Origin: Mobula hypostoma
Taxonomy: Eukaryota
DNA: 64,000 nt
Assembly: GCF_963921235.1 (NCBI RefSeq)
Contig: NC_086097.1
Location: forward strand, 170,688,001-170,752,000
Reading direction: 5' to 3'
The stretch's first letter is position 1, and the number at the start of each line of letters is the position of its first letter. A program made the position numbers and the translations under genes. The notes under the pieces are model-generated. The model saw only the letters and a program-made list of their open reading frames with translations. It was not told where the DNA came from and did not search any database. Of the stretch, positions 1,385 to 62,610 are shown piece by piece.

Positions 1385-1570
1385 GAAAGTGCTGGAAACA
1401 CTCAGCAGGTCAGGTAGCATCCATGGACAGAAATATGGATTTAGCATTTCAGTTCAAAGACTTCTGATGAAGATTATCCACCATGAAACATGAATTTTCT
1501 TTCTCTTTCTACAGGTACTGCCTGACCATCTGAGTGCTCCCAGTATTCTCTATATTTATTTTTGAATTCC
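1385..1570. mobile_element. Degenerate Penelope-like terminal repeat pair in inverted orientation
   Basis: Minus-strand arm (GCTGGAAACACTCAGCAGGTCAGGTAGCATC) faces a plus-strand arm (CTGATGAAG...GAAAC...CTGCCTGACCATCTGAG); same motif family as 22455-22585 and 55860-55966. Confidence 0.65.
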
Positions 1571-3379: not shown

Positions 3380-3555
3380 TGGGAGAGCTCAACCTTTTGA
3401 GCAATATCTGCAAGGGGGTAAGGAATTCCCAAAGTTTCGGCTCAAAACCCTTTATCAACACTAGTGTAGGGTTTTGAACCGAAATGTTGACAGTTCCTTT
3501 CACCCTACAGATGTTGCTCGACTCGCTGAGCCCCTCCAGTGGATTATTTGTTACG
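3380..3555. mobile_element. Penelope-like terminal repeat pair, inverted
   Basis: Inverted repeat TTTCGGCTCAAAACCCT (3435-3451) / AGGGTTTTGAACCGAAA (3468-3484), followed by the CAGATGTTGCTCGACTCGCTGAG..CCAG tail of this family. Confidence 0.7.
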
Positions 3556-4184: not shown

Positions 4185-7100
4185 AAGACTATAAAACATA
4201 GGAACAGAATAAGGTTATTTGGCCCAATGACTTTGCTTGCCATTCTGTCATGTTTGATTTATTATCCCTCTGAAGCCCATTCTCCTGCCTTCTCCCATTA
4301 CCTTTGACACCCTGATGAATCAAAAACCTACCAACTTCTGCCTTAAGTATACCCAATGTTTTGGCTTGCACAGTCATCTCTGGCTAAAGGAATTTTTCCA
4401 CATCTCTGTTCTAAATGGATGGTCCTCTATTCTGAAGCTATTCCCTCTACTTTTAGACACCACCACTACAGGAAACATACACACTACATCCACTCTATCT
4501 TGGCCTTTCAATATTCAATAAGTTTCAATGAGATCCCCCACTCATTCTTTTAAGCTTTATCGAGTACAGGCCCAGTGCTATCAAACACTCCTCAGTATGA
4601 TATGTTAACCCTTTCATTTCTGGGATTATTCTCATGAACCTCCTCTGGGAACTCTTCAATTTGAGCACATCTGTTCGTAGATAAGATGCCCAAAACTGCT
4701 CACAATGCTCCAAGTGCAGTGTGACCAATGCCATATAAAGACTCAGCATTACATAATTGCTTTTATATTCTTGTCCTCTTGAAATGTATGCTAACATTGC
4801 TATTGCCTTGCTACTGCCCCCCCCCGCCTATCATTGTATTGTCTGTACACCTTGCCATAAAGCTATTAATTCCTTTGTCCAACATGAAACGAAGTAGTCT
4901 CCACAATGACCCCTGCGGAACAGCACTAGTCATTGGCTGCCAAACAGAATCCTGCCCCTTTATTCCCCCTCTTTGCCTTCTGCCTGTTAGCCAATCTATC
5001 CATGCGTGTATCTTTACCTCTTATCCTGTTAGCGGCCTCATGAAAATTGAAATAAACAACATACACTGTCTATCCTGCCTGTTAGTTTCTCAAAGAATTC
5101 CACTGATTTGCCAAACAAGATTTCCCCTCAAGGAAACCATGCTGATTTTAGCCGAGTAACACTCTCAAAATGCTGAAGGATTTCAGCAGGCCAGGCAGCA
5201 TCTTTGGAAAAGAAACGTCAACAGTACTCTTTTCCATAGATGCTGCCTGGCCTGCTGAATTTCTCCAGCATTTTGTGTGTGTTGCTTGGATTTCCAGCAT
5301 CTGCAGATTTTGTTTTTCTTTATGATTTTAGCCTCCTTTGTCACATGCCTCCAAGTAGCCCAAAAGCTCCATCTTAATAGTAATGGACTTCAACACCTTT
5401 CCAATCACTGAGGGCAGACTAACTGGCCTAAACTTTATTTTCTTCTGACTCCCTCCCTTTTTAAAGAGTGGAGTGACATTTTGCAATTTTCTAGTCCTCC
5501 GAACCATTCCGGAATCTAGTGACTCTTGAAAGGTCATTACTAATGCCTCCACAATCTCTTCAGCTGCCTCTTTCAGAATCATGGGGTACAGTTACTCTCA
5601 AACTTCCAGCTTCAAAAGCACCTTCTACTTAGTAATAATAAAGTCACACACAGTTCTGCCCCCTGAGGCTCACGCATTTCTGATAAGCGCTAGAGACTTC
5701 TACAATGAAGACTGATGCAAAATACTTAATTAAGTTCCTCTGCCATTTATTTGTCCACCATTACTATCTCTCCAGCCTAATTTTCCAACGGTCTGATATC
5801 CACTGCGGTATATCTGAAAAAAAATCTTTTGTATCCTCTTTTACATTTTTGAATAGTTTATCTTCATATTTCATTTTTTCTTTATGGCTTTATTCGTTGC
5901 ATTCTGTTGGTTTTAAAAAAGCTTCCCGATCCTCTGTCTTCCCACTAACTTTTGCTATTTTATATGCTCTTTCTCTTGCTTTTACGTTGTCTTTGACTCC
6001 CCTATCAGCCACAGTTGCCTCATCCTTCCTTTGGAATACTTCTTTATCTTTTAAATGGATCTTTCCTGTGCCTTCCGAATTTCTCCTAAAACCTCAGCCA
6101 TTGCTGTTCTGCTGTCATTCCTGCTAGTGTCCCCTTCCAATTAACTTTGACCTGCTCCTCTCTCATGCCTCTGTAATTCTCTTTATTTCACTGTAATACT
6201 GATACATCTGGTTTTATTTCTCCTTCTCAAACTACAGGTGAATTCTATTGTATTATGATCTCTGTTTCCTAAAGATTCCTGTACCTTAAGCTCCTTAATC
6301 AAATCTGGTTCATTACACAACACACAATCCAGAATTGCTGTTCCCCTAGTGGGCTCAACCACAAGCTGCTCTAAAAAGCCATCTTGTAGGCATTCAACAT
6401 ACTCCTTCTCTTGGATTCCAGCACCAACCTGATTTTCACAATTTACCGGCATATTGAAATCTCCCATGGCCATCCCCCATCACCGTTTATGCTCAGCCAT
6501 GATCGTACTAAATGGCAGTGTAGGCTTGAAAGGCCGAATGGCCTACTCCTGCACCTATTTTCTATGTTTTCTATCACAACATTGCCCTTTTTACATGCCT
6601 TTTCTATCTGTAGTTGTAATTAGCCACAACCTGGCTACTGTTTGGGGGCCTGTATATAACTCCCACCAGGGTCATTTTACCCTTACAGTTTCTTAACTCT
6701 ACCCACAAGGATTTTATATCTTCTCATCCTATGTCATCTCTTTCTAGGGATTTCATTTTGTTTTTACCAACAGAGCGACCCCATCCACTCTGCCTATTGG
6801 CCTGTCCTTTCCATACAATATGTATCCTTGGATGTTAAGCACCTAGCTATGATCTTTTAGCCATGACTCAGTGATGCCCATGCCATCATACCTACCAATC
6901 TCTAACTGAACAACATGATCATCTGCTTTATTCGGTAAACTGCATGCATTTGGATATAAAACCCTCAGCCTTCTATTTATCACCCTTCTCAATTTTGTTT
7001 CCCTGCTACTTAACTTATCCTATTTACTTTAATTTCATCTTATCATCTGCCTTTCCTTCCTCACAGTCTCACTACACACTGCCTTTGCTTGGATACCAAC

Positions 7101-17574: not shown

Positions 17575-17680
17575 TTCACCTCCTGATGCAGGATTTTGAC
17601 CTTGAAATGTCGACAACTCCTTTCATCCTGCAGATGCCATTTGACTGACTGAGCTCCTCAGCAGATAGTTTGTTATCCCA
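17575..17680 (+). mobile_element. Degenerate Penelope-like terminal repeat
   Basis: CTGATGCAGGATTTTGACCTTGAAATGTCGAC...CAGATGCC..GACTGAGCTCCTC. Confidence 0.6.
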
Positions 17681-22269: not shown

Positions 22270-22590
22270 TAGAATCCTTCTACTACCCATTGTGTTTTCC
22301 CCTATTCTTTCTTCACCTTTCCTGCCTATCACCTCCCTGCCTCCCTTTCCCCACCCCTTTATCTTTCCCCTTACTGGTTTTTCACCTGGAATCTACCAGC
22401 CTCCTTCCCACCCTCCCCCCACCTTCTTTATAGGGTTCCTGCCCCTTCCCTCTACAGTCCTGACGAAGGGTTCCGGCCCGAAACATCAACCGATCTTTTC
22501 CACGGATGCTGCCCGACCTGCTGAGTTCCTCCAGCATGTTGTGAGTGTTGCTTTGACCCCAGCATCTGCAGAGTATTTTATGTTTACGAC
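22270..22590 (+). mobile_element. Penelope-like element 3' end (pyrimidine-rich region plus terminal repeat)
   Basis: Same architecture as the GIY-YIG-linked copy at 59439-60108; contains CTGACGAAGGG..CCCGAAAC and GATGCTGCCCGACCTGCTGAGTTCCTCCAGC. Confidence 0.8.
22455..22492 (+). ncRNA. Minimal type I hammerhead ribozyme motif (stem I/III partly mutated)
   Basis: CAGTC-CTGACGA-A-GGG-TTCCGG-CCC-GAAA-C-ATC: both catalytic boxes and stem II intact. Confidence 0.6.
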
Positions 22591-24320: not shown

Positions 24321-24409
24321 TGGCTGTATTCATGAGTAATCATGTATGGTTGAATGACACTTGAACTTGAATTGAACTGAAGTCTTCCAAATTCTCCCCT
24401 GAAGAGATA

Positions 24410-26960: not shown

Positions 26961-28552
26961 CGTCTGTGCTTTGCAGAGTCTAATAATGTTGGGGAATTTG
27001 AAAGAAAGCCTTTGGACTGGCTTTAGGTACACATCTGGCTACAAATGGATATTTTCCAAACTGCAACTGTACAGATCACTTTATCTGTTTACTGTCCCTG
27101 CTTGTAATATCTGGAGAAAAGTCCTCTCAGGTATTTCTGGCACTGAATAGCCTCCAGGACGGTCAGCAATCTCACCCGTTCCATTCCCCACAATCTTTCC
27201 ACTACCTTTCCAATTCCTCTTCGTGATCCCAGATTCATTCTGGTTCAGAGAGGCAGTAGGTTTCAGGTCATAACTCATCACTGTACTGTACAGGCACAAA
27301 ATGTATACAAACTATTTCACTGGAGAAGTGGCTATTCATATGGCTTGTGTTAGCCAGGTGCTGTTCCACTGGTTCACAGGATAGCTACGTGTAATGTTCT
27401 GTATTGACCTGATTGCTTTGTTTGTGTTGTGTGGGGAGGGTTATCAGTGTAGTGTTTGCCTGCTGCATAGCTATCAAACTGGTCATCTGGACATGTAGGT
27501 TGCTCTGCACAGTATGCACATGAGATAGTTATTTCTGGAGAAGTTTCCACCCAAGATTTATTTTGGACCTCATGTTGCTTAGGCACTACATGGTGTGGGA
27601 GTGTGGTTGGTGAAAATCAGCCTCCATGGGGTATAAACTAATATCAGTTTTACAAGTGGTAATGTGTTGACTGATGTACCAGGCAGTTGGTATGTCCAGA
27701 AAGCTGCATTTATGAGAAGTGTTAGTTTCTACCTGGGGTGCGCTGGTGCAGCGATCAGCCAAGTGTGGGATTGGTCATACAGGAAAAAAGGATCTCTCTG
27801 TTCAGAAGGAAGGCTGAGGGGGTGGCCTAATATGGGTCTTGAAAGTGTTGATGCGTTTTACTGCATGGATGCAGAGAATGTTTTCACTTGTGGAGAAGAA
27901 TACAACCAGAGGCTGTCCATACAGGGTGGTTATTGAGAAATCCACAGGGACTTCAAAAGTCCCAGCCCATTCAAAGGGGGGAGGTAGTGCAGAATGCTTT
28001 AAGAGGGAGGTGGATATGTGTAAAAGGGAGAAGGGAACAGAGAGCTGGACTGACAGAATGAACTGACAAATAGTGCTTCATATGGAGCATAAATTCCAGC
28101 ATGAACTGCTTGGGCTGAATGGCCTGTTTCTGTGTTGTATATTCTATACAGTGCAATGTAATAATATAAGTGCTGTGCTATTTTATAAGAGGGAGATACA
28201 TATAGAAGAGGGCTGTGTGATCATCTATGCCTATGCTTCCCACTCTATTCTTTGGCTGATTGACCTTTATCCCCAGGTTACCATCCCCCCCCCCCCAACT
28301 AGTGAAAATAATATCTTTCATCAGAGCCCTTAATAACATCAAATACCACAATTAAGTTTCCTCATAACGTTCTCTGTCATCAAGAGAACAATCCAAGAAT
28401 CCAAGCTTCACCACTCACTACCCTTCCTGCTTAAGGCTCCTTATGCATTTCTGCAAGTCACTTCTTTGCCTTCTCTTTAATTTCATCCAGAACTGAACAA
28501 AGTACAGTACCCCAGCTGGTAAATTAATAAATTGGTTTATTATTGTCATATT

Positions 28553-29517
28553 CACTCAGTGGCCACTTTATTAGGTATAGTAGCCACTGAGTGCTTGTTC
28601 ATGGTCTTCTGCTGTGTCCACTTCAAGGTTCGATGTTCACGTTTAATTGTCATTGAACCAAATATGAAAACCCATGAATACAGCCAAGCGAAGCATGATT
28701 CTTCCAGGGCCAAGGTGTAAAACACAGTACCAACAGTCATACACAGCGCAAGGGACATATAGCACATATAAGACAGCAGAAAACATCCAGTCACACAAAA
28801 TATATATATAACATAGCCCAGCTCCCTGAGTCTATGAATGTTATGGCAAGAGCTAGCCCTGCAGCAGAATGCAATCCGAACTTGTTTTCCACTATGTGAA
28901 CAGTAGAATGCAGCACCCAATGGATGCTACGCTGCACCGCCTCTGGCATCACCTCTCCTGGATGGCTGCAACAGGTGACACTGTCGCATGAGGCCTAGTC
29001 TGTGCTATAACTGAAGCCATGCAGCATCCCCACCATTGGTCCTGCCAATAAACCAGTGAACCAGACTTGAAGTATTCTACATTACCAATGTCTTGTGATC
29101 AAAAGAAAAATGTACAAGACAATCACTCCCCGTTAAACTGCACACTGCCTTTGCACACTGTTCCCTTTTTGTCACATTGAACCAGTCTGGTCATACTCCT
29201 CTGACCCCTTTCAGTAACAAGGCATTTTCGTCCACAGAACTGCTATCCACAGGATGTTTTTATTTTGTTTTTGCACCATTCTCAGTAAACTCTAGAGTGT
29301 TGTGTGTGTAAGTTCCAGGAGATCTACAGTTTCTGAGATAATCAAGTCACCCCAGCTGGCACCGATAATCATTCCAAAGTCAAAGTCACTTAGATCACAT
29401 TTCTTTCCCATTCTGGTGTTTGACCTGAACCTCTTGACCATGTCTACATGCTTTTTTACATTGGGATGCATTAGCGAGCAGGTGTACAGGTGTACCTAAT
29501 AAAGTGGACACTGAGTG
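28553..29517. mobile_element. Tc1/mariner-derived MITE with an internal LINE-tail-like insertion (~28635-29156)
   Basis: 25-bp TIRs CACTCAGTGGCCACTTTATTAGGTA / TACCTAATAAAGTGGACACTGAGTG (24/25 match); TA on the right flank, TT on the left. Confidence 0.85.
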
Positions 29518-29584
29518 TATCCTGAGGTACGGTGAACAACATTTTTATTTTTTTTTAAGTTTTTATTTTAGTTTATGTTTTAGA

Positions 29585-29964: not shown

Positions 29965-30075
29965 GAACAACACACACAAAATGCTGGAGGAACTCAGCAC
30001 GCCAGGTAGCATCCATGGAAAAAAGTAAACGGTTAACATCTCGGCCCGAATCATCTTCATCCCTCATGAAGATGG
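29965..30075 (-). mobile_element. Penelope-like terminal repeat with short inverted end
   Basis: CAAAATGCTGGAGGAACTCAGCACGCCAGGTAGCATC, ending in the CATCTTCAT..ATGAAGATG hairpin. Confidence 0.7.
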
Positions 30076-35722: not shown

Positions 35723-35834
35723 CCATGGTATAGTCAGTAGAATAATTTGAAAATATTGCTGTAAAATACTAAGCAATCACCTGTGTAAATGAATGAAAAT
35801 ATTGCTTTCTGATCATTATTTTTTGATGGAATTC

Positions 35835-38455
35835 TATCTCCTTTACCATAGCATTGGAGAGGGATAGGAACAGACAAGTTAAGAAAGCGTTTAATTGGAA
35901 TAAGGGGAAATATGAAGCTATCAGGCAGGAACTTGGAAACATAAACTGGGAACAGATGTTTTCAGGGGATACGTGGCAAATGTTCAGGGGATATTTGCAT
36001 GGTGTTCTGCATGGGTATGCTGCAATGAGACAGGGAATGGATGGTAGGGTACAGGAATCGTGGTGTACAAAGACTGCTGAAAATCTAGTCAGGAAGAAAA
36101 GCTTACGAAAGGTTCAAAAAACAAAAGATCTAGAAGTTTATAAGGCTAGCAGAAAGGAGCTTAAAAATGAAATTAGGAGAGCCAGAAGGGGCCATGAGAA
36201 GGCCTTGGCAGACAGGATTAAGGAAAACCCCAAGGCATTCTACAAGTATGTGAAGAGCAAAAGGATAAGACGTGAGCGAATAGGACCAATCAAGTGTGGC
36301 AGTGGAAAAGTGTGTATGGAACTGGAGGAGATAGCAGAGGTACTTGATGAATACTTTGCTTCATTATTCACTACGGAAATGGATCTTGGCAATGGTAGGG
36401 ATGACTTACAGTGGACTGAAAAGCTTGAGCATATAGACAGTAAGAAAGAGGATGTGCTGGAGCTTTTGGAAAGCATCAAGTTAGATAAGTCACTGGGACT
36501 GGATGAGGTATACCCCAGGCTACTGTGGGAGGTGAGGGAAGAGATTACTGAGCTTCTGGCAATGATCTTTGCATCATCAATGGGAATGGGAGAGGTTCCA
36601 GAGGACTGGAGGGTTGCAGATGTTATTCCCTTATTCAAGAAAGGGAGTAGTGATAGCCCAGGAAATTATAGACCAGTGAGTCTTACTTCAGTGGTTGGTA
36701 AATTGATGGAAAAGATCCTGAGAGGCAGGATTTATGAACATTTGGAGAGGCATAATATGATTAGGAATGGTCAGCATGGCTTTGTCAAAGGCAGGTCATG
36801 CCTTACAAGCCTGATTGAATTTTTTGAGGATGTGACTAAACTCATTGATGAATGATGTAGATGTAGTGTATATGGATTTCAGCAAGGCATTTGATAAGGT
36901 ACCCCATGCAACGCTTATTGAGAAAGTAAGGAGGCATGGAATCTAAGGGGACCTTGCTTGGTGGATCCAGAACTGGCTTGCTCACAGAAAACAAAGTATG
37001 GTTGTACACATGTCATATTCTGCAAGGAGGTTGGTGACCAGCGGTGTGCCTCAGGGATCTGTTCTGGGACCCCTTCTCTTCGTGATTTTTATAAATGATC
37101 TGGATGAGGAAGTGGAGGGATGGGTTAGTAAATTTGCTGATGATAAAAAGGTTAGGGGTGTTGTGTATAGTGTGGAGGGATATCAGAGGATACAGCGGGA
37201 CATTGATAGGATGCAAAACTCGGCTGAGAAGTGGCAGATGGAGTTCAACCCAGATAAGTGTGAGGTGGTTCATTTTGGTAGGTCAAATATGATGGCAGAA
37301 TATAGTACAGTATTAATGGTAAAACTCTTGGCAGTGAGGAGGATCAGAGGGATCTTGGGGTCCCAGTCCACAGGACACTCAAAGCAGCTACACAGGTTGA
37401 CTCTATGTTTAGGAAGGTATACGGTGCATTGGCCTTCACCAACTGTGAGATTGAGTTTAAGAGCCGAGAGGTAATTTTACAGCTATATAGGACCCTGATC
37501 AAACACCACTTGGAAAACTGTGCTCAGTTCTGATCACCTCACTACAGGAAGGATGTGGAAATTATAGAAAGGGTGCAGGGGAGATTTACAAGGATGTTGC
37601 CTGGATTGGGGAGCATGCCTAATGAGAATAGAGTAGATTAGATTCAACTTTATTGTCATTGTGCCGAGTACAGATACAAAGCCAATGAAATTCAGTTAGC
37701 ATCTGACCAGAAATGCAAAGAATAGTGTTATTTTGTAAAATAACAGCAAATAAAAAGTGCTACAGCACACAAATATAAAAGTACTGAAACAGTATAATAT
37801 GGGTGCAATACTGCTTAGTGCTGTGTTGTGAGGTTCAGCAGGGTCACAGCCTCAGGGAAGAAGCTCCTCCTGTGCCTGCTGGTGTGGGAGCGGAGGCTCC
37901 TGTAGTGCCTACCAGATGGGAGGAGGGTAAAAAGTCCATGGTTAGGGTGAGATGCATCCTTGATAATTATGGTAGATGTTCTCAATGGTGGGCAATTGGG
38001 TGCCAATAATCCGCTGGGCAGTTTTCACCACACGCTGGAGTACTTTGAGTGAACTCGACCTTTTCTCCTTGGAGCAACGCAGGATGAGAGGTGACCTGAA
38101 AGAGGTGTATAAAATGATAAGAGGCATTGATCATGTGGCTAGTCAGAGGCTTTTTCCCAGGGCTGAAATGGCTAACATGAGATGGCATAGTTTTAAAGTG
38201 CTTGGAAGTAGTTACAGAGGAGATGTGAGGGGTAAGTTTTTTTACGCAGAGAGTGGTGAGTATGTGGAATGGGATGCCGACGACCGTGGTGGAGGCGGAT
38301 ATGATAGGCTCTTTTAAGAGACTCCTGAATTGGTACATGGAGATCATAAAAATAGAGGGCTATGGGTAACCTGAGGTAATTTCTAAAGTACATGTTTGGC
38401 ACAGCATTGTGGGCCAAAGGGTCTGTAGGTTTTCTTTGTTTCTATGTTTCTATGA
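35835..38455 (+). mobile_element. CR1 LINE ORF2 pseudogene (about 2.2 kb plus insertion)
   Basis: 333-aa frame 35854-36855 (KENPKAFYKY, PEDWRVADVIPLFKKG, NYRPVSLTS, QHGF.KGRSCLT), then PQGSVLGP/FADD and CR1 tail; stop at 36853. Confidence 0.95.
37635..38045 (-). mobile_element. Rex1/Babar-type 3' fragment inserted into the CR1
   Basis: (GATTA)n tail; IIKDASHPNHGLFTLLPSGRHYRSL..SFFPEAV motif. Confidence 0.85.
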
Positions 38456-43664: not shown

Positions 43665-45294
43665 CAGTGTCTATAAAACGTACTCACACCCCTTGGAAGT
43701 TTTCATATTTTATTGCTTTACAATGTTGCATTGCAGTGGATTTCATTTGGTTTTTTGACACTGATCAACAGAAAAAGACTCTTTCATGTCAAAATAAAAA
43801 CATCTCTCTACAAGGTGATCTAAATTAATTACAAAGATACAACGCTAAATAATCGCTGCAGAAGTATTCACCCCTCTTTACTATGACACTCCAAATCATC
43901 ATTGGTGCAGGCAGTTGGTTTTAAAAGTCACATAATTAGTTAAGTGGAGGTCTGTTTTTGGAGACCTGTTTGCAGTCAAGGTGTTTCAATTGATTGTAGT
44001 AAAAATACACCTGTATCTGGAAGGTCCAATTGCTGCTAAGTCAGTATCTTGGCAAAATCTACACTATAAAGTCAAAAGAGCACTCCAAACAATTCCATGA
44101 AAAAGTTATTGAAAAGCACAAGTCAGGAGATGGAGACAAGAGAATCTCCAAGTCACTGAATATCCCTTAGAGTACAGTTAAGTCAGTCATCAAGAAATGG
44201 AAGGAATATGGTACTGCTATAGTTCTGCCTAGAGTAGGTCGTCCTCAAAACCTGAGTGACCGTGCAAGAAAGGGACTAGAGACGGAAGCCACTAAGAGAC
44301 CTATGACAACTCTGGAGGAATACAAGCTTCAGTGGCCATGATGGGAAAGACTGCACATACAACAACTATTGCCCGGGTGCTTCACCAGTCGCAGCTTTAT
44401 GGGAGAGTGGCAAAGAGAAAGCCACTGTTGAAAAAAACTCATATGAGATCTTGGCTAGAGTTTGTCATAAGGCATGTGGGACTCTGAAGTCAGCTGGAAG
44501 AAGGTTCTATGGTCTGATGGAACCAAAATTGAGCTTTTTGACCATTAGACTAAATGTTACGTTTCGTGTAAGACAAACACCGCACATTATCAAAATCACA
44601 CCATCCCTACTGGGAAGCATCGTGGTGACTGCATCATGCTGTGGAGATACTTCACTGCAGCAGGCTCTGGAAGGCTTGTGAAGGTAGAAGGTAAAATGAA
44701 TGCAGAAAGATACAGGGAAATCCTAGAGGAAAATCTGATGCAGTCTGCAAGAGAACTGGGTCTTGGGAGAAGATTTGTTTTCCAGCAAGACAATAACCCC
44801 AAGCATAAAGCCAAAGCTACACAGGAATGGCTTAGAAACAACAAAGTTAATGTCCTGGAGTGACCAAGTCAAAGTCCAGACCGCAATCCAATTGAGAATT
44901 TGTGGCTGGATTTGAAAAGGGCTGTTCACTCATGATTCCCATGCAATTTGACTGAGCTTGAGCAGTTTTCGAAAGAAGAATGGGGAAAATTGCAGTGTCA
45001 GATGTGCAAAGCTGATAGAGATCTATACACACAGACTCAAGGCTGTAATTGCTTCCAAAGGTGTATCTACTAACTGACTTGAAGGGGGTGAGTAATTATA
45101 CAATTATTTTGTGTTTTATATTTGTAATCAATTTAGGTCACTTTGTAGAGATCTTTTTTAACTTTAACATGAAAGAATCTTTTTCTGCTGATTAGTGTCA
45201 AAAAAGCCAAATTAAATCCACAGTTAGTCAACATTGTAAAATAATGAAAAAAAGCTTCGGGGTGGGGGGGGGTGAATACTTTTTATAGGCACCG
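43665..45294 (+). mobile_element. Full-length decayed Tc1-like transposon (DD34E, IR/DR-type ends)
   Basis: About 210-bp imperfect TIRs (CAGTGTCTATAAAA.. / ..TTTTATAGGCACCG) followed by TA on the right; inner and outer TATTCACCCC-like direct repeats. Confidence 0.93.
44066..45077 (+). pseudogene. Tc1 transposase pseudogene
   Basis: (M)KSKEHSKQ..ISKSLNIP*STV..GRPQ, WSDGTK, FQQDNNPKH..W*PSQSPDRNPIENLW with 34 residues between the second D and E; ATG mutated to ATA; stops and frameshifts. Confidence 0.92.
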
Positions 45295-47436
45295 TATACT
45301 TTCTGTATATCCTTCAAGGATGTGTGCAGGGATAAGGGGTTGGACAGTCATCTAAAACAAAACTATAACATGTAGTTCTTCTTATGTAGTGTTATATTTT
45401 GTAACTCCAATAGATAAAACTAATTGAAAGAAAACATAGAGCCAGGAATAACATGTGTACTCTAGTTTCATTTTCACTTCAAGTGAGTCATGCACATATG
45501 ACGTGGTGTCACTATGACATATGCCATTCACGTACTTTTGCATATAACGTGTAATGAATTATTTAAACAAAAACAATGCTTAATCAAACAATATATTTAC
45601 AGTATTACTCAAATATTACTTAAATATTAAATGCACACTTCTCCCTGCTTAACTATAAACTCCAATTCAATATAGAATGTATCTCTACTATATACTCAGT
45701 TTACTATATAATACAACAACGATATCCACATCCACAACAGAGTAAATTTTTAATTGTCCATTCAAGTCTAAAGAGTTAATTGCTGTGGGGGATTTCTTAC
45801 TGTTTGGGATAACATTTTTCTGACGTGGGGGATCACTCTGCTTAGCAAGTGAGACTTGTGACTGTGAAACAATCTCAGGCTTTCTACATAATGGTTGTAG
45901 GAGTTGACTTGGGGACTGCAGGAAGTGGTTCTGACAGCTCTGGCCACCTTTCTTATCCAGCAATTGACTTTCTTATCCAGCAATTGACTGATCAATGTGT
46001 TGTCTCCAGGTGACATCAGATGCTATCTCTCCTGTGTAGGAGCGTGGTCCTGCTCTATCTTAATCTTTCCAAGTTCCCACTTTTGATCATCTCTGTAGTC
46101 CCTCTCAAGGATTGCTTGTCCAGGAGTGAAATGGGAAACCTCCTTGTTTGAGGAGCCCTCAGTTTGACTCAGTTGTTTGCCCTGCATAGATTGGGTTGGA
46201 GGTGATCCAAGCATAAGCACAAGGAGCAAACCAGAAGCAGTATAGTTGGTGAGTTGTTGGTTGTGGACTGTGCTGCATTGTGATATGCAAGGAGGAAATT
46301 GATGAGCTTCTGATTCAGTGTCAGTGAAGTGTATTCTGCTGACATTGCTTGCAGTACGTTCTTTAGACTCTGCACAAATCTTTCTGCCAAGCAATTCGTA
46401 GTTGACGGGTATGGTGCAGATGTAATATGTCTTAATACTTTCATTTTCAGGAATGACTGAAACTGTTCCATAACAAACTGTGGTCTATTGTCACTAAGCG
46501 TTCTGGAATACCAGTCCTCGAGGAGAGGCTTCTCAACACATCAGCAGTGTGCCAACCTGTAGTGGAGGCTATTGGCAACACTTCTGGCTACTTTTAGCTG
46601 CATCCACTCCTACCAAGAAATTTGTGCCCATAAGTGGCATGTCAAAGTCCACAAGAATCCTTTGCCAGGGCAATGCAGGGTATTCCCTGATATGGAGAAG
46701 TACTGCTCTTGGCATCTTCTGAATGTGCTAGGATCTCGAACAGTGCATGGTGAGCTCCTCAATTTGCTGATCTGTCCTAGGTCACTAAACAGAGTGTCAA
46801 GCATTTTGACCACTTTGAGATGACCGGCATGTAGCCCGTCCAATGCTTTAGCTCTCAGCCTGGATGGTACAATGACTCTTAATCTCTACACAAGGCAACC
46901 TTTGCAAAGGGCAAGTTCCAAAGAGCTGGTAAAAATGGAGGAACTGGAATGTCTGCTGCATATTCTAGCCTTCTAGAGTTGCCATGAAGAGCTGAAACAG
47001 AGTGGGGTCTTTTGTGGTTTCCCTTTGGTTCATCTCTGCCATAACAGGGAGACTTTCAATTTGCATTAGGGAGAATACGTCAAAGGGTGTGTCCTCTTTT
47101 GAAAATTTTTCAAGATATTTCCTTTTCCAAGGGGTAAATGGGACAATCCATCAGAATTTCTCTTGAAGTTGATCTGTAATTGTGTCCTCTAAGAAACAGA
47201 GTCCATCTCTGCATTCATCCTGCTACTGTGAATGGAACATCCTTCTGCAGTTTGAAAATGGACACTAGTGGTTGATGATCAATAAACTCTCTCCCATTTA
47301 AGAATGGTTGAAATATTTTGCACCCTGAACCGAACTCAAGGTCTCTCTGTCAATCTGTGCATAATTTTTCTCTGCAGCGCTAGGGGAATGTGATACTAAA
47401 GCCACGGGATGTTCACTTCCATCACTCATAATATGA

Positions 47437-48910
47437 ATGAATTGAATGAATTGACTTTATTTCTTACATCCTTCACATACATGAGGAGTAAAAATCTTTA
47501 TGTTACGTCTCCATCTAAATGTGCAATGTGCTATCATAGTAATTTGTAATAATTTATAATAGATAGAACAGTCAATGTAACATAGAAATACACTCAAATC
47601 AGCGTGAATTAATCAGTTTGATGGCCTGGTGGAAGAAGCTGTCCCAAAGCCTGTTGGTACTGGCTTTTATACCAAACTTCCTCAACCGTCTGAGGTGAAA
47701 GAGGTGCTGTTGTGCCTTTTTCACCATGCATCTGGTGTGTACAGATCACGTAAGGTCCTCAGTGATGTGGATGCTGAGGAACTTAAAGCTGTTTGCCTTA
47801 CAATCCCAGATCCATTGATGTCAATGGGGGTTAGACCGTCTCCATTCCTCCTGTAGTCCACAAGCAGCTTCTTTGTTTTTGCAGCACTGAGGGAGAGATT
47901 GTTTTCTTGACACCACTGTGTCAGAGAGATGACTTCTTCCCTGTTGGCCACCTCATTATTGTTTGAGATTAGGCCAACCAATGTAGTGTTGTTGGCAAAT
48001 TTAATTAGCAGATTAGAGCTGTGGGTGGTGACGCAGTCATGGATATACAGGGAGTAAAGGAAGGGACTGAGTACACAACCCTGAGGGACTCCTGTGTTGA
48101 GGGTCAGAGGGGCAGAGTTGAGGGAGCCCACTCTTACCACCTGCTGGTGATCTGACAGGAAGTCCAGGATCTAGCTGCACAGGGCAGGGTCAAGGCCGAG
48201 GTCTCTGAGCTTCCTGTCGAGCCTGGATGGAATTATGGTGTTGAATGCTGAACTGTAGTCCAAGAACAGCATTCTCACATAAGCATCCTTCTTCTCCAGA
48301 TGTGTAAGGACAGTATGTAGAGCAGTGGCTACTGTGTTGTCTGTTGATCGATTGTGTTGGTAGGCGAACTGTAGGGGGTCCAGTTTGGGTGGTAGCAAAC
48401 TGCAGATAAAATCCTTGAAGATCCTCAAAGCATTTGGTTATTATTGAGGTGAGTGCGACAGGACGCCAGTCATTCAGGTATGTTACCTTGGTCTTTTTTG
48501 GGGCAGGGACAATGGTGGATAGTTTGAAGCAGGAGGGCACTCTACACTGAGAGAGGGAGAGATTAAAAATGTCAGTAAATGCACCTGCCAGTTGTGCTGT
48601 GCACATCCTGGGTACCCACTCTAAGTGTTGTCTGGTCCCGCAGCCTTGCGACTGTTCACTCGTTGGAAACATCTGCCGTACCTCAGCCTTGGAGATGACC
48701 AGGTTGCAAGTTGAAGAGGTGGCTTTCTTTGGAGGCTCAGAGTTAGCAACATTGAACTGAGCATAAAAGAGATCGAGCTCATCTGGGAGAGAGGCTGCGC
48801 TGTTGGCGGCACCACAATGTTTGGCTTTGAAGTCAGTGATGGTATGCAGCCCTCACCACAAGTCACATGTGCTATTCGTTGTGAATCTTGACTCAATCTT
48901 GTCCCTGTAT
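47437..48910 (-). mobile_element. Rex1/Babar-type LINE inserted in Gypsy pol
   Basis: KAAGPD, LNDWRPVALTS, LDPLQFAY, LFLDYSSAFNTI, NTGVPQGCVLSP, KTK.L.VDYRR motifs; (TGAAT)n tail. Confidence 0.92.
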
Positions 48911-54130: not shown

Positions 54131-55824
54131 AAACCGATCGATCAACACAATTGAAAGAAAACAACAGTACTGAAGATAAAGAGTACAACCTTTGAAAGGA
54201 TGGAGAACATTCAGTGTAGCATTGTGAAGGAGTAAATGAATATTCTGAAACAAGATAGGAGTAGCTAACTGAATCAAAAAATTCTTCCACTGGCACTTTA
54301 CACAGCAACATCAAAGACCAGATGGTTTTATGCCTGGAGAAGAAAACACATCAAAATAAAGTTAACTGGCCAGATCTTGCTAGAATGTGGCATTTTACAG
54401 CATGCCCTGTTAATTAAACTTCTATTTCTGCATCTTTTCTGTTCAAATGTATCCTTGTCTCAGGAAGTGAGAGGTGATGATGATAGCAAGGGGCCACCCA
54501 GTGAATGACAGGACAAGACAGCTAATTCCTTAACCATTGAGAATGGAGGACTAGCAGAGTGGGAAATTATTTGGGAATGTTGAAAACAAATTGTGTATAA
54601 ATACAAAGAGAGAAGGAATTGAGGGCTCAAAGGGAAAGTAGAAAAAAAATGTTAATTAAAATGTGCTATTTAAAAATATATCAGAAATAACAAGTTACGG
54701 CAAGCAAGGATAATAAGCTGTTTACTGTAAATTGTTCCTTTTCTTAGCCCCAAAATTTTGATGATACTGAATCAGAATCAGGCTTTGTAGTTACTTGCTG
54801 ATGTGAAATTTGTTGTTTTGCAGCAGCAGTACAGCGTAAGACTTAAAAATTACTGTAAGTTGCAATAATTAAATATATAAATAAATAGTGCAAAAGAGTA
54901 ATAATGAAGTTGTGTTCGTGGGCTGTTCAGAAATCTGATCAGCTCCTGTACCTCCTCCCTGAAGGTGTTAATAGGAGAGCATGACCGATCTGAATTAACA
55001 ATTGTCAGATTGGTTAGCATTAGATTCCAGGTGAATTTCACAGCCAATTGATGTACAAATTTAGCAAGCTATTTCAAATTTCATAGGGTTGTAGGTGCAG
55101 GCTTTTGGGAAGATTGGGTAAGAGTAAAAGCAAAAGTATTGACCAGAATGATGTAAATCAAGCAGCAAGTTGTGAAGATTTACATCTCATGGTGTTCTCT
55201 TAACCCCTTGAGCTTGGCTGTCTGATTTGAGCATTAATAATGGCCAGCATCATTAACACACCCCCATTTCTCCAAAAGATTCAATGCTGTGCCAAGTTTC
55301 TAATAATGTATTTCATTTATTCTAAAAATCCTTTGAAGACTTAATTAGAAATGTTTAACGTACCAAATTCAATTGAAATTAAGCCGGAGAGTCAAGAAGG
55401 TGCAACAAGAATGATAAATTCATTGAAAATTCATCCCCAGTAGAGCTATGATTGCAAGCAGATTCTGAAGAAGCTTGTCAGCTATTTTTCCTAAAGTCAG
55501 GTATCTCTCGTCATCTAATCTCTCATTCACTCAATAAACGCATGATTAACAACCACAGTGCTGGGTGCTGGTCACCATTCATTTAAAAAAATATTCCTGT
55601 AATTCTTTGAAGATTCCCCTGTAGTGGAAGACTGTAAAATTGTACACCATAACCAATTCAATGGGATTTCCCCCAAACATCTGCTGGAATGTGCTTAGAA
55701 GTAGCGAGGGTGCTAAGCATTCTTGGAACTGTAATGAGACAGAGGAGAAGACAAGGAATTTGACAACAGAGAAGATTAGACATGAGGGATACAGATTCTA
55801 TATACTGTAGCAGACCAGATTCTA

Positions 55825-55966
55825 CTAGATCAGCCTTTCAAATCTCTTACTAGCTCTTCCTTCAGTTAGTCCTGACGAAGGGTCTCAGCCTGAAACGTCG
55901 ACTGTACCTCTTCCTAGAGATGCTGCCTGGCCTGCTGCGTTCACCAGCAACTTTGATGTGTGTTGC
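55825..55966 (+). mobile_element. Penelope-like terminal repeat
   Basis: Well-preserved copy ending GATGCTGCCTGGCCTGCTGCGTTCACCAGCAACTTTGATGTGTGTTGC. Confidence 0.8.
55868..55903 (+). ncRNA. Minimal type I hammerhead ribozyme motif with intact core
   Basis: AGTC-CTGACGA-A-GGG-TCTCAG-CCT-GAAA-C-GTC-GACT: stem I AGTC/GACT, CUGANGA and GAAA boxes, stem II GGG/CCU, palindromic ACGU in place of stem III, GUC cleavage triplet. Confidence 0.75.
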
Positions 55967-56029
55967 CCAGACTGCTTGCTTGCTTTTGATTGGGGTCAGA
56001 TGCATCAGGGAACGTAGTACATAGAACAG

Positions 56030-56765
56030 GAAACTTGGAATACAGTGTTCAGTTCTAGTTGCCTCATTATAGGAAGGATGTGGAAACATTGGAGAGGGTG
56101 CAGATAAGATTTACCAGCATTAGAGAACATGTCTAATGCCTTATGAGGAAAGATCAATTGAGCTCAAACTTCTCTCTTTGGAATAAAGGATGACAAGAGA
56201 TGACTTGATAAAGGTCTAGAAGATGATAAGTGGCATAGATAGAGTGGACAACCAGCATTTGTTTTCTGCAGAGGACATCCCATTTAGCTAGTGGAGGAAA
56301 GTTTAGGGAAGATGTGTGAGGTCGGTTTTTTACATAGAAAGCGGTAAGTGCCTGGCGTGTACTGCTGGGCATGGTGGGAGAGGCTGACTCTTTAGGGACA
56401 TTTAAGACAGCTTTAGATAGGCATATGGATGAATGAAAAATGAAGGGTTATATATGGTGTAGGAGGGAAGTGTTGGGTTGATCAAGGAGTAAGGTAAAAG
56501 TGCAGCACAACGCCATGGCCCATATTGTGCTGTACTATACTATCTCCCATGTTCTAGTACAGCACTGGAATGGCCATGCAGCCTACAATGTCTGTAGAAA
56601 GCATAATACCAAATTAAACTAGTTTTCTTTCATCCACATCCCTCCCTGCCTGCATGTTTATGTACCAATCTAAAAGCATTTCCAACTTCACTATTGCATC
56701 TGCTTCCACCACCACCCCTGACAGCCCATTGCAAGCACTCAGCACTCTCTGCGTGAAAGAACTTG
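56030..56765. mobile_element. Two CR1 3' ends, tail to tail
   Basis: Plus-strand copy ~56030-56555 and minus-strand copy ~56555-56765 (FTQRVLSACNGL..VVEAD). Confidence 0.8.
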
Positions 56766-57778
56766 ACAAATGTAGAATTGAAAGTGGGGGTTGCCTTTGA
56801 ACGCCTGATTTCATGTTTCCTTCGGAAGGTCATTTCCCACTTTTTCCTTGGGAAAAATACTGTGTGCTTTCACCCAAACTATGCAGTTCAGAAGTTCTGA
56901 GCGACTACCTGGGAAGGATAGGTTGTCTTATGTGGAAAACACAGGCACTTACCTGGACTAGGCACTTCACCTGCCAATCCATTGATGTACTTTATCATTG
57001 TGGGCAGGTTTGATAGAGGTGTGGAGAGCATTTAAACTAATTTGGCAGGGGGATGGGAACCAGAGTGATGGGACTGAGGATGCAACTAGATGCAGTGTAT
57101 AGTGAGACTGTGTAAGGAAGGCGCAGGAAAAATACGTCACAAGGATTCTAAAAGGAGAATGAGGCAACTGTGGGTGACAAGGGACGTCAACGACAGCATA
57201 AGAGCAAAAGAGAAGGCATATACATAACAAAAATCAGTGGGGATGTAGAGTATTGGGAAGCTTTTAAAAACCAACAGAATGCAATTAAAAAACCAAAAGG
57301 AGAAAAAAGATTAGATTAGATTAGATTAGATTATGAGGACACTCAGTCCTCATTTATTGTCATTTAGAAATGCATGCATTAAAAAAGATGCAATGTTCCT
57401 CCAGAATGATATCACAAGAAAACACAAGACAAACCTAAAACTGACAAAACCACATAATTATAAAATATAGTTACAACAGTGCAAAGCAATATCGTAATTT
57501 GATAAAGAGCAGACCATGAGCACGGTAAAAAAAAAGTTGAAGTATGAAAGTAAGGTAGCCAATAATATAAAACAGGATACAAGAAGTTTTTTTTTTGGAT
57601 ATATAAAGAGTAAAAGAGAGACTAAAGTGGATATCAGACCGATGGAAAATAAAACTGGAGGTAGTAATGGGGGACAAAGAAATGGCGGCAGATTTAAAAG
57701 TATTTTGTATCAAACTCCACTGTGGAAGGCACTAGCTGTATGCCAGAAATGTGAGAGTGTCAGGTGCCAGAAATGAGT

Positions 57779-57911
57779 CCTGTCGAAGGGTTTCAGCTCA
57801 AAACGTCGACTGTACTTTTTTCCCCCATAGATGCTGTCTGGCCTGTTGAGTTCCTCCAGCATGTTGTGTGTGTTGCTAGGATTTCCAGCATCTGCAGATT
57901 TTCTCTTGTTT
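57779..57911 (+). mobile_element. Penelope-like terminal-repeat mini-insertion with 15-bp TSD
   Basis: GTGCCAGAAATGAGT (57764-57778) / GTGCCAGAAGTGAGT (57912-57926); mutated hammerhead core CTGTCGAAGGG..AAAACGTC. Confidence 0.85.
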
Positions 57912-58683: not shown

Positions 58684-58892
58684 CAAAGAAGTGGCAGGTG
58701 GAAGGCAGCATAGGGAAATGTATGGTCATGTACTTCGGTCGAACAAAAAAAATAGCATAGACTATTTTCTAAATGGGGAGCAAATTTTCAAAGAAGTGGC
58801 AGGTGGAAGGCAGCGTAGGGAAATGTATGGTCATGTACTTTGGTAGAACAAAAAAAATGGCATAGACTATTTTCTAAATGGGGAGCAAATTC
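58684..58892 (+). repeat. 105-bp tandem duplication inside the CR1
   Basis: CAAAGAAGTGGCAGGTGGAAGGCAGC.. starts at both 58684 and 58789. Confidence 0.9.
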
Positions 58893-59438: not shown

Positions 59439-60108
59439 TTTGGTGAGATCTGACATATATTGGGGGAAAGCTTTGTCGAGCACCATTGTTCCATCCATTG
59501 CAACAGCCAAGATCACCTGGTGGCCAGCTATTTCAGTTCCACTTCCCATTTCCGCATGACATGTCTGTCCATGGCCTTCTCTGTTGCCGTGTTGAGGCCA
59601 GAAACTGACTGAAGGAGCAGCACCTCATATTCTGTCTGGTAATCTCCATTCTGATGGCATTAACATTAATTTCCCAAACTTGTAGTAACCACTCTATGCT
59701 GTTTCCCCCACAACCCCCCTCCCATTTTACTTATCCATGTGGGCTTGTTAAACCTTCTCTTTTCCCTCCCTCACCTTCATGACCTGCCCATCACATTCAC
59801 CATCCTCATTTATTCCATGGTCCACTGTCCTCTCCTATCAGATTCCATCTTCTTCAGCCCTTTTCTTATCCACTTTTCACCTCCCAGCTTCTCACATCAT
59901 TCCATTTGTTCCCCTTTCCCTACCTACCTATCTTCCCCTTCTCACCTAGAATCACTTATCTCCTGCCAGCATGTGCTCCTCCCCTTCCCTCTACCTTTCT
60001 AATATGGCTTCTGCCCTCTTCATTTTCTGTCCTGATGAAGCAACTAAGCCAAAAACGTTGACTGTTCTTTTCCCTCCATAGATACTGCCTGACCTGCTGA
60101 ATTTCTCA
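59439..60108 (+). mobile_element. Penelope-like element 3' portion: GIY-YIG endonuclease remnant, pyrimidine tract and terminal repeat (resumes at ~62086-62125)
   Basis: My translation: GEI*HILGESFVEHHCSI..DHLVASYFSSTSH / DMSVHGLL..LKEQHLIFCL..DGIN, matching the C-terminal half of PLE GIY-YIG (IGET.R.L..RF.EH..E...I..L....G.N); followed by CTGATGAAG at 60032. Confidence 0.8.
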
Positions 60109-62085
60109 GAATCAGAATCCGGTTTATTATCAGTGGCATGCGACGTGAAATTTGTTAACTTAGCAGCAGCAGTTCAATGCAATATATCATCTAGCAGAGA
60201 AGAAAAATAATAAATAAAAAGGAAATCTATTACAGTATATGTATATTGAATAGCTTTAAAAAATGTGCAAGATACTACATATTTAAAAAAAGTGAGGTAG
60301 TGTCCAAAGATTCAATGTCCATTTTGGAATCCGATGGCAGAGGGCAAGAAGCTGTTGCTGAATCGCTGAGTGCCTTCAGGTTTCTGTACCTCCTACCTGA
60401 TGGTAACAGTGAGAAAAGGTGAAAAGACAATTTCGAACGAGGTTGGAGGTGACATTGGATGCATGGCAACTCTGGCAGGGTCTGCAAGACATTACTTTCT
60501 GCAAAGCAAAATCCAATAAATAGCATGAATGACAGCAATGCTTCACTACAAGATGAACTCAACGTCTTCTATGCTCGCTTTGAAAGGGAGAACACAACTA
60601 CAGCTGTGAAGATCCCTGCTGCACCTGATGACCCTGTGATCTCCATCTCAGAGGCCGATGTTAGGCTGTCTTTAAAGAGAGTGAACCCTCGCAAGGTGGA
60701 AGGTCCCGATGGAGTACCTAGTAAAGCTCTGAAAACCTGTGCCAGCCAACTAGCGGGAGTATTCAAATACTCAAGGACATTTTCAACCTTTTACCTCCAC
60801 GGGCAGGAGTTCCCACTTGCTTCGAAAAGGCAACAATTATAGCAGTGCCTAAGAAGTTGTCCTATCCAAGACTGGAAGAAGCTGCAGAAGATCATGAACA
60901 CAGCCCAGCACATCACACAAACCAATCTTCCATCCTTGGACTCACTTTACACCGCACGCTGTCGGAGCAGTGTTGCCAGGATAATCAAGGACACGACCCA
61001 CCCAGCCAACACACTTTTCATCCCTCTTCCCTCCGGGAGAAGGCTCAGGAACTTGAAGATTTGTACAGCCAGTTTTGGGAACTGCTTCTTTCCAACTGTG
61101 ATAAGACTGCTGAATGGATCCTGACCCGGATCTGGGCCGTAACTTCCAAATATCCAGACCTGTCTCAATTTTTTTGCACTACCCTACTTACCCATTTCTA
61201 TTTTCTATTTATGATTTATAATTTAAATTTTTAATATTTACTATCGATTTGTACTCCAGGGAGCACGAAGCGCAGAATCAAATATCGCTGTGATGATTGT
61301 ATGCTCTAGTATAAATTGTTTGGCGACAATGAAGTATAAAGTATAAAGAATAATGTGAGCTGCCTTAATGACTATCACCCGGTAGTACTCATGTTGACAG
61401 CGATGAAATGCTTTGAGAGTTTAGTCATGACTAGACTGAACTCCTGCCTCAGCAAGGATCTGGACCCAGTGCAATTTGCCTATCGCCACAATAGGTGAAT
61501 GACAGATGCAATCTCAATGGCTCTCCACATGGCTTTAGACCACCGAGACAACACAAACACCTGTTCATCGACTACAGCTCAGCATTTAATACCATCATTC
61601 CCACAATCCTGATTGAGATTTTGCAGAACCTCACTCCGCAATTGGATCCATGGCTTCCTAACTGAAAGACCACATTTTGTGTGGATCGGTGATAACATCT
61701 GCTCCTTGCTGACGATCAACACTGGCGCTCCTCAGGGGTGTGTGCTTAGCCCACTGCTCTACTCTCTATATACAGCGGCTATACTTTATTAGAAGTTTGA
61801 AGAGATCTGGCATGTCAACAAATACACTCAAAAATTTCTATAGTTGTACTGTGGAGAGCATTCTGACAGGCTGCATCACTGTCTGGAATGGAGGGGCTAC
61901 TACACAGAACCGAAAGAAGCTGCAGAAGGTTGTAAATTTAGTCGGCTCCATCTTGGATACTATCCTACAAAGTACCCAGGACATCTCCAGGGAGTGGTTT
62001 CTCAGAAAGGCAGCGTCCATTATTATGGACCTCCAGCACCCGGGGTATACCCTTTACTCACTGTTACCATCAGGTAGGAGGTACA
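60109..62085. mobile_element. Rex1/Babar-type LINE with 5' inversion; second Rex1 3' fragment nested at ~60853-61345
   Basis: 3' end on the minus strand (60109-60419); body on the plus strand (60421-62085: ELNVFYARFE, GPDGVP, DPVQFAY, ESILTGCITVW); 35-bp inverted overlap at the ends. Confidence 0.85.
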
Positions 62086-62214: not shown

Positions 62215-62610
62215 CCTAGGGTGGTGCAGTAGCATAGCAGTTAGAATAATGCTTTCTAGCACCAGTGATCAGAAGATCAGGGAGGAGTTATACATTTACC
62301 CTGTGACTGAGTGCATTTCCTCCAAGTGCTCAAGTTTCCTACCACATTCCAAAAAGATGTTCTGGTTAGGTTTAGTAAGTTACATACTATGTTGGTGTCA
62401 GAAGATGTTCTGGTTAGGTTTAGTAAGTTACATGCTATGTTGGTGCCAGACGATGTTCTGGTTTAGTAAGTTGCATGCTATGTTGGTGCCAGAAGAATGG
62501 CGACACTTGTGAGCTGCCCCAGCACATCTTCAGGCTGTGCTGGTCATTAATGAAACATTTCGATTAATTTGATGTTTCGATGTACATTTGACAAATAATG
62601 CTAATCATTA
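62215..62610 (+). mobile_element. V-domain SINE with an internal 48-bp triplication (62355-62493)
   Basis: tRNA-like head GGTGCAGTAGCATAGCAGTTAG; V core TTTCCTCCAAGTGCTC..TTTCCTACCACATTCCAAA; three AGATGTTCTGGTT..GTTGGTG units. Confidence 0.8.

Follow-up and report, generated by a model that had tools for sequence, protein, structure and literature searches.

A minimal hammerhead motif in an abundant, probably Penelope-like repeat family of Mobula hypostoma

In a 64-kb stretch of DNA from Mobula hypostoma (the window), the 36 bases at 55868-55903 form a real minimal hammerhead motif. Very probably, the motif belongs to the terminal repeat of a Penelope-like element, and the copy described here (the index copy) is a recently inserted, passive, and decaying 3′ piece near a young subfamily.

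Results

The hammerhead motif

By sequence inspection, the 36 bases match the earlier reading letter for letter (Table 1). Every element of a minimal type I hammerhead had been claimed for this site, and all of the letters are confirmed, with the qualification that the closing pair of stem II (10.1-11.1) is G·U in the index copy, against the usual G10.1-C11.1. Helix I has four standard pairs (AGUC/GACU) and a possible G·U, helix III is absent, the ACGU palindrome lies at 55895-98, and the topology is type I. The predicted cleavage point is the 55899/55900 junction.

Is such a motif expected by chance? A descriptor comprising a stem I of at least 4 bp, both boxes, a stem II of at least 3 bp, a palindromic 15.1-16.1 stretch, and NUH had a single match on both strands of the 64 kb, while 0.01 per 64 kb is expected from 100 first-order Markov sequences. 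The two-box pattern alone has four matches against 0.40 expected, a count reached in 0 of 100 shuffles; three of the four are copies of the family, while the one at 24399 is outside it. An Rfam search found no hammerhead among 12 matches with E values up to 10, the fold stability is not unusual (z −0.97), and the nine decayed window copies show a two-sided change in one of eight stem pairs, with no excess over shuffles. These three results would suit a hammerhead match arising by chance inside another kind of repeat. However, the rarity of the full descriptor, the sparing of the core by subfamily changes (see below), and extras beyond the core boxes, namely the bulged A and the palindromic 15.2-16.2 positions, argue strongly against it, and a chance match is hardly credible.

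Table 1. Features of the index copy and of its sister copies in the window
Feature	Positions	Strand	Evidence and remarks
Stem I 5′ arm AGUC	55868..55871	+	Sequence, descriptor
Catalytic box C3-A9, CUGACGA	55872..55878	+	Sequence, two-box pattern; family variation limited to CpG sites 55876/55877
Unpaired A at the A9-stem II junction	55879	+	Sequence; published min-HHR feature
Stem II region GGGTCTCAGCCT / GGGUCUCAGCCU	55880..55891	+	4 bp (two G·U), 4-nt loop, closing pair G·U
GAAA box (55892-55895), C, GUC triplet (55897-55899); palindromic ACGU replaces stem III	55892..55899	+	Sequence, descriptor
Stem I 3′ arm GACU	55900..55903	+	Sequence, descriptor
Pyrimidine-rich tract ending in AG, splice-acceptor-like, overlapping stem I 5′ arm	55850..55869	+	Sequence
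127-bp insert: 5′-truncated, tail-less repeat end piece	55837..55963	+	Empty site in organism C, depth jump
Tailed sister copy with mutations in both boxes and an intact substrate side	57779..57911	+	nhmmer; 15-bp target duplication, 1 mismatch
Tailed sister copy, 5′ piece inverted	5154..5322	+	Perfect 11-bp target duplication 5143-53 / 5323-33
Longest, decayed sister copy	59447..60110	+	Broken frame 59447-59680 (three frames), pyrimidine-rich spacer, damaged hammerhead at 60028
Tailed sister copy with damaged palindrome and stem I 3′ arm; stem II and both boxes intact	22321..22590	+	
Decayed sister copy, tail-less	29968..30061	-	
Decayed sister copy	17581..17666	+	
Head-to-head inverted pair, decayed hammerhead regions	3430..3533	+	
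Decayed sister copy, inverted piece upstream	1387..1540	+	

The overlap of a pyrimidine tract and AG with the 5′ arm of stem I was seen in two subfamilies (55850-55869 and 22440-22458), with the acceptor-like AG at 55868-69 and 22457-58 in the terminal repeat copies. Splicing at this AG would cut stem I down to 2 bp. Loose contig ends indicate a different pyrimidine tract before 55868 in other family members. Neither a spliced joint nor an RNA-specific loose end was found among the contig rows listed for 55581-56030. The end of the intron of Drosophila virilis Penelope likewise overlaps the 5′ arm of hammerhead stem I (PMC4209133).

Size and conservation of the family

The word depth at 55881-55895, relative to the unique flank, was roughly 6.7, 6.4, and 3.4 × 10^5 in three runs, a ratio that is no copy number and is read only as 10^5 or more. 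This suggests that the family has roughly 10^5 copies or more, and the nine loci in 64 kb agree. The earlier claim that the genome holds a very large motif-bearing family is thus supported. The family DNA patterns were found in 0 stretches of metagenome contigs and in 0 of viral contigs. Three bacterial matches to them were rejected as chance 21-mers in GC-rich DNA lacking the motif.

How well is the motif conserved within the family? The variation statistics come from depth-weighted contigs of at least 80% likeness, in which diverged subfamilies are clipped; the clipping and the depth weighting bias them, and organisms A and B are not independent. Ten positions of the 36-nt motif are in CpG. 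None of the 24 non-CpG sites of the core and stems varies at 3% of depth or more in any of the four runs, while both non-CpG sites of loop II vary. In the next 36 nt downstream, 10 of 34 non-CpG sites vary, several of them at 20-75% in one run owing to subfamily differences. The core and stems are thus better conserved than the downstream repeat (Fisher p 0.003 for 0/24 vs 10/34; p 0.009 for 0/20 when four edge sites are removed), as the earlier note had expected of a genuine hammerhead family. The unpaired A55879 is invariant at the 3% level in all four runs. The A of the index copy at 55887 is the minority letter, G making up 69-79% of the family depth, and the U at 55891, which gives the G·U closing pair, is a subfamily trait (C in 36, 40, and 80% of depth in X1, X5, and X9, respectively).

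Since the core and stems vary solely at CpG sites, the source elements kept the hammerhead while diverging. In the three genomic runs, the CpG decay at essential letters is 3-6% for G8, 5-9% for G12, 7-12% for G16.2, and 5-9% for C17, compared with 5-9% for the loop CpG and 8-17% for the downstream CpG. The decay is lower in the run guessed to be RNA, where rare variants were possibly dropped. As the essential CpGs decay about as much as the non-essential ones, the inserted copies decay regardless of function. Read from these substitution patterns, there is evidence that selection acted on the source elements, not on the inserted copies.

A young insert in the index locus

Contigs from four public runs were aligned to 55581-56030 at 80% likeness. 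An organism C contig (one contig, depth 8.3) joins 55836 directly to 55964, skipping 127 bp, and has 14 differences in 256 flank bases (about 5% diverged). In organisms A and B, contigs cross the left junction into the insert, with 2 differences in 283 bases. The clean empty site in organism C favours insertion after the split over loss in C. Thus, the 127-bp insert, present in A and B and missing in C, is young and is not a conserved host element. The depth of the left flank is about 9 (X1), 42 (X5), and 8 (X9), and it is in the millions between about 55836 and 55970. A target duplication of 6 bp or more was not found at the index insert.

Sister copies and the carrier element

Related, more mutated copies had been reported at eight other positions of the window, and an nhmmer search with 55850-55970 recovered all eight (E values from 1.7e-13 to 0.004), the one at 3435-3490 via its forward half. 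The search also added inverted pieces at 5166-5212 and 1387-1452. The motif is complete at one of the nine loci, the index copy.

These copies bear several marks of insertion by reverse transcription. Target duplications (11 bp and 15 bp) are present at two of eight loci tested; the 15-bp duplication flanks 57779-57911 (57764-78 / 57912-26) and has one mismatch. Inverted pieces adjoin the repeat at three of nine loci (1387-1540, 3430-3533, and 5154-5322). A tail of about 35 nt is present in three of the five copies compared (22455, 57775, and 5211) while those at 55868 and 30030 lack it. Copies also vary in where they start at the 5′ side, the ones at 22455 and 60028 extending 130-580 bp further upstream, and the family contigs extend upstream of 55835 with common sequence; together, the differing ends and the upstream continuation form a pattern of 5′ truncation. 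The target duplications of variable length, the inverted pieces, and the tail fit what is known of Penelope-like elements, in which 5′-truncated pieces may be inverted and a tail of 30-40 bp may or may not be present (PMC8557442, PMC11167929).

The insert 57779-57911 lies within a CR1-like LINE remnant and opens at the hammerhead's 5′ edge; the AGT that closes its target duplication looks like the beginning of stem I. In 5154-5322, inverted sequence gives way to forward sequence at the GAAAC box, roughly 7 nt ahead of the predicted cleavage point.

Judged by eye, the broken frame at 59447-59680 resembles what I take to be the end of a Penelope GIY-YIG endonuclease, and a short isolated fragment at 56940-57010 on the plus strand looks like the first part of such a domain. 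Searches with the endonuclease-like remnant of Pfam (GIY-YIG), a word index, phmmer, PDB, and viral contigs gave no true match, and the fragment at 56940-57010 had none either. The single phmmer match was rejected as a tandem-repeat artefact. A Penelope reverse transcriptase was not found in the 64-kb window. With these negative results, the connection to a Penelope ORF is drawn from resemblance judged by eye and from structural hallmarks. The boxes, the short helix I, the palindrome, and the unpaired A are all present, supporting the earlier assignment to the minimal type I hammerheads of Penelope-like terminal repeats. The source element itself is inferred to be Penelope-like.

Is the family instead a non-autonomous one? 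In this alternative, a SINE-like or retrozyme monomer with a unit of about 130-170 nt would use a Penelope enzyme in trans, and the copies would not be truncated coding elements. The three delimited inserts are 127, 133, and 169 bp long, the one at 57779 begins at the hammerhead 5′ edge, and retrozymes from Penelope terminal repeats have been reported in vertebrates including one chondrichthyan (bioRxiv 10.64898/2026.07.22.740005). However, no copy is in a tandem array, the 5′ ends vary as described above, the 60028 copy reaches into coding-like sequence, and the common sequence continues upstream of 55835 in the family contigs. Such a non-autonomous unit is therefore very improbable.

Predicted folding and cleavage

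In the best predicted fold, the CGUC of the cut site is taken up by pairing with G5-G8, and the catalytic box is buried. The folding model gives an open, active-like monomer a P of 0.0008; in a 221-nt context, stem I has a P of about 0.01 and the blocking helix a P of 0.45. In the homodimer, the active fold has −9.5 kcal/mol and the best alternative −23.2 kcal/mol, and in the dimer of the index copy with 57775, the values are −5.1 and −20.6 kcal/mol. The active dimer folds are thus 14-15 kcal/mol worse than the best alternatives, although these energies ignore tertiary contacts and proteins and the misfold is a prediction.

Since the nearest same-strand copies, 57775 and 60028, have broken boxes, neither could cut the index site. 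On the other hand, the index core could in principle cut 57775, which lies 1.9 kb away and whose palindrome and substrate arm are intact. In published work, single min-HHRs showed no cleavage and dimers showed weak cleavage in vitro (PMC4209133). The motif of an anole element cleaved solely with the protein of the element and was dispensable for insertion in vitro, and no RNA-seq reads started or ended at its cut site (PMC11167929). Among frog dimer elements, one of nine cleaved (bioRxiv 10.64898/2026.07.22.740005). The lone index copy, with its G·U closing pair, a predicted misfold, and no intact partner nearby, probably cuts nothing.

Does the index copy cut a host transcript?

A CpG island at 25.7-27.1 kb (observed/expected 0.70-0.83) and a donor-like site after 26464 make a plus-strand transcript plausible. 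Pfam was run on 80 of the 82 plus-strand ORFs beyond 25.5 kb and on 154 of 166 on the minus strand, and no host coding exon was recovered from them, the 37 kb downstream of the island included. The scan covered ORFs under 40% repeat-masked, of at least 52 aa on the plus strand, and at most a minority of the 61 plus-strand ORFs that precede 25.5 kb; short exons would escape it. The Pfam matches were remnants of LINE, LTR, and Tc1 types, plus two weak matches, to Spc7 (in a CR1-like ORF) and to ZrgA (E 6e-4). With no host exon among the scanned ORFs, the cutting of host pre-mRNA lacks support.

Could the index copy nevertheless be a working cutter of host RNA? It would be intronic, would pair in trans or in cis or be folded by a protein, and would cut after GUC. 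All of the core letters are intact, the family sequence occurs in 4762 contigs of the run guessed to be RNA, the same-strand 57775 copy 1.9 kb off retains the palindrome and the substrate arm, and it is preceded on its own strand by the CpG island and the donor-like site. In the run guessed to be RNA, whose contigs reveal neither RNA ends nor strand, none of the listed contigs starts or stops at 55899/55900. Against this stand the lack of a host exon in the scanned ORFs, the energy deficit of the active dimer folds, the G·U closing pair, the absence of the insert in organism C, the decay of essential CpGs at about the non-essential rate, and the lack of RNA-seq ends at the cut site of the anole element (PMC11167929). 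A host-RNA cutter is thus very unlikely. The earlier proposal that this copy could cut intronic pre-mRNA is not supported, since no host exon was found, the insert is absent in C, the monomer is predicted to misfold, and the nearest partners are broken. Moreover, published monomers of the same type were inactive (PMC4209133), and cleavage of the anole motif was protein-dependent (PMC11167929).

The window contains other repeats. A 342-codon open stretch at 35827-36852 (+) encodes a CR1-like LINE ORF2 (RVT_1, E 6e-7), a fragmented transposase of the Tc1/Sleeping Beauty type lies at 43900-45100 (+), and at 46000-47500 (-) a broken remnant of LTR-retrotransposon type gave matches to RNase H-like sequence and to integrase. 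A short near-palindromic element with terminal inverted arms was found at 28548-28598, with a related sequence near 29470-29520. Local tandem repeats are present at 62354-62496 (48 bp × 3.1) and 58684-58891 (105 bp × 2).

Discussion

The reading that I prefer, a Penelope-like terminal-repeat hammerhead in a passive 3′ piece, suggests the following course of events. In the source element, two motifs would pair via the ACGU palindrome to form a 4-bp intermolecular helix III, as proposed for min-HHRs (PMC4209133), and each core would cut the partner strand after GUC, probably aided by the protein of the element. In line with published work, the cleavage at GUC would process the RNA of the element. 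Reverse transcription of this RNA would usually stop early, which would fill the genome with short 3′ pieces having one motif each. The stretch 55837-55963 is very probably one such piece, now decaying.

A bolder extension is that, with 10^5 or more copies of which many would lie in transcribed DNA, any two family RNAs swap strands via ACGU and form a genome-wide pool of trans-acting cutters, whose intact cores would act on substrate-only copies, 57775 for example, in other pre-mRNAs. I consider this highly unlikely. If true, no tandem partner would be needed, cutting would be switched on where the protein of the element is expressed, and selection against sense-strand intronic copies would be expected.

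Comparison with known systems

This kind of motif was already described in 2014, in the min-HHRs of metazoan Penelope-like elements (Cervera and De la Pena 2014, PMC4209133). The index copy shares with them the type I topology, the lack of helix III, the palindromic 15.2-16.2, the unpaired base after A9, a helix I of 4-5 bp, and the occurrence as mostly solitary dispersed copies. It also sits just past a splice-acceptor-like AG, like the D. virilis motif in that study. In contrast, stem II is 4 bp long here and 7-8 bp in the Schistosoma families, and the closing pair is G·U in the index copy while G10.1-C11.1, which the search descriptor does not require, is reported as highly conserved in min-HHRs. 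The highest min-HHR counts given there are about 4,000 in the coelacanth and 9,000 in Xenopus. The copy number here looks 10- to 100-fold above these maxima, a rough comparison in which all relics are counted on the present side. No shark or skate is named in the text and supplement of that paper as available. Setting aside the preprint that sampled one chondrichthyan, none of the literature matches listed treats such hammerheads in sharks or rays; one of them uses 'shark' for the shape of the head.

Poseidon of Anolis carolinensis (Frangieh et al. 2024, PMC11167929) resembles the present family in its terminal-repeat hammerhead, the optional 30-40 bp tail, and the short 3′ pieces. The Poseidon ORF starts inside the hammerhead, and its activity was assayed (protein-assisted), whereas the index copy is known from its sequence and has no ORF. 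Vertebrate non-LTR retrozymes (bioRxiv 10.64898/2026.07.22.740005) are likewise of type I, originate from Penelope terminal repeats, and have many monomeric copies. However, a retrozyme is defined there as a tandem of units in which at least two consecutive hammerheads are complete, while 0 of 17 tandem-repeat rows in the window overlap a copy. With this and the single complete motif in the window, identity with a tandem retrozyme was rejected. Amniote intronic hammerheads such as that of RECK (PMC6155905) are also of type I, and the index copy is possibly intronic as they are. RECK-type hammerheads are conserved at one locus across species (PMC6155905), while the index insert is missing in organism C; because of this empty orthologous site (one contig), a domesticated intronic hammerhead of the RECK type was rejected.

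What is new here is the empty site at the level of the locus and the evidence of selection on source elements and not on inserted copies. The single index copy adds little by itself. The family, being young and having dated copies in the hundreds of thousands, is a test bed: presence or absence between close relatives and the comparison of G-C and G·U subfamilies could serve to test if cleavage by Penelope hammerheads takes place in vivo. The same test bed could serve to test if selection acts against intronic copies in sense orientation.
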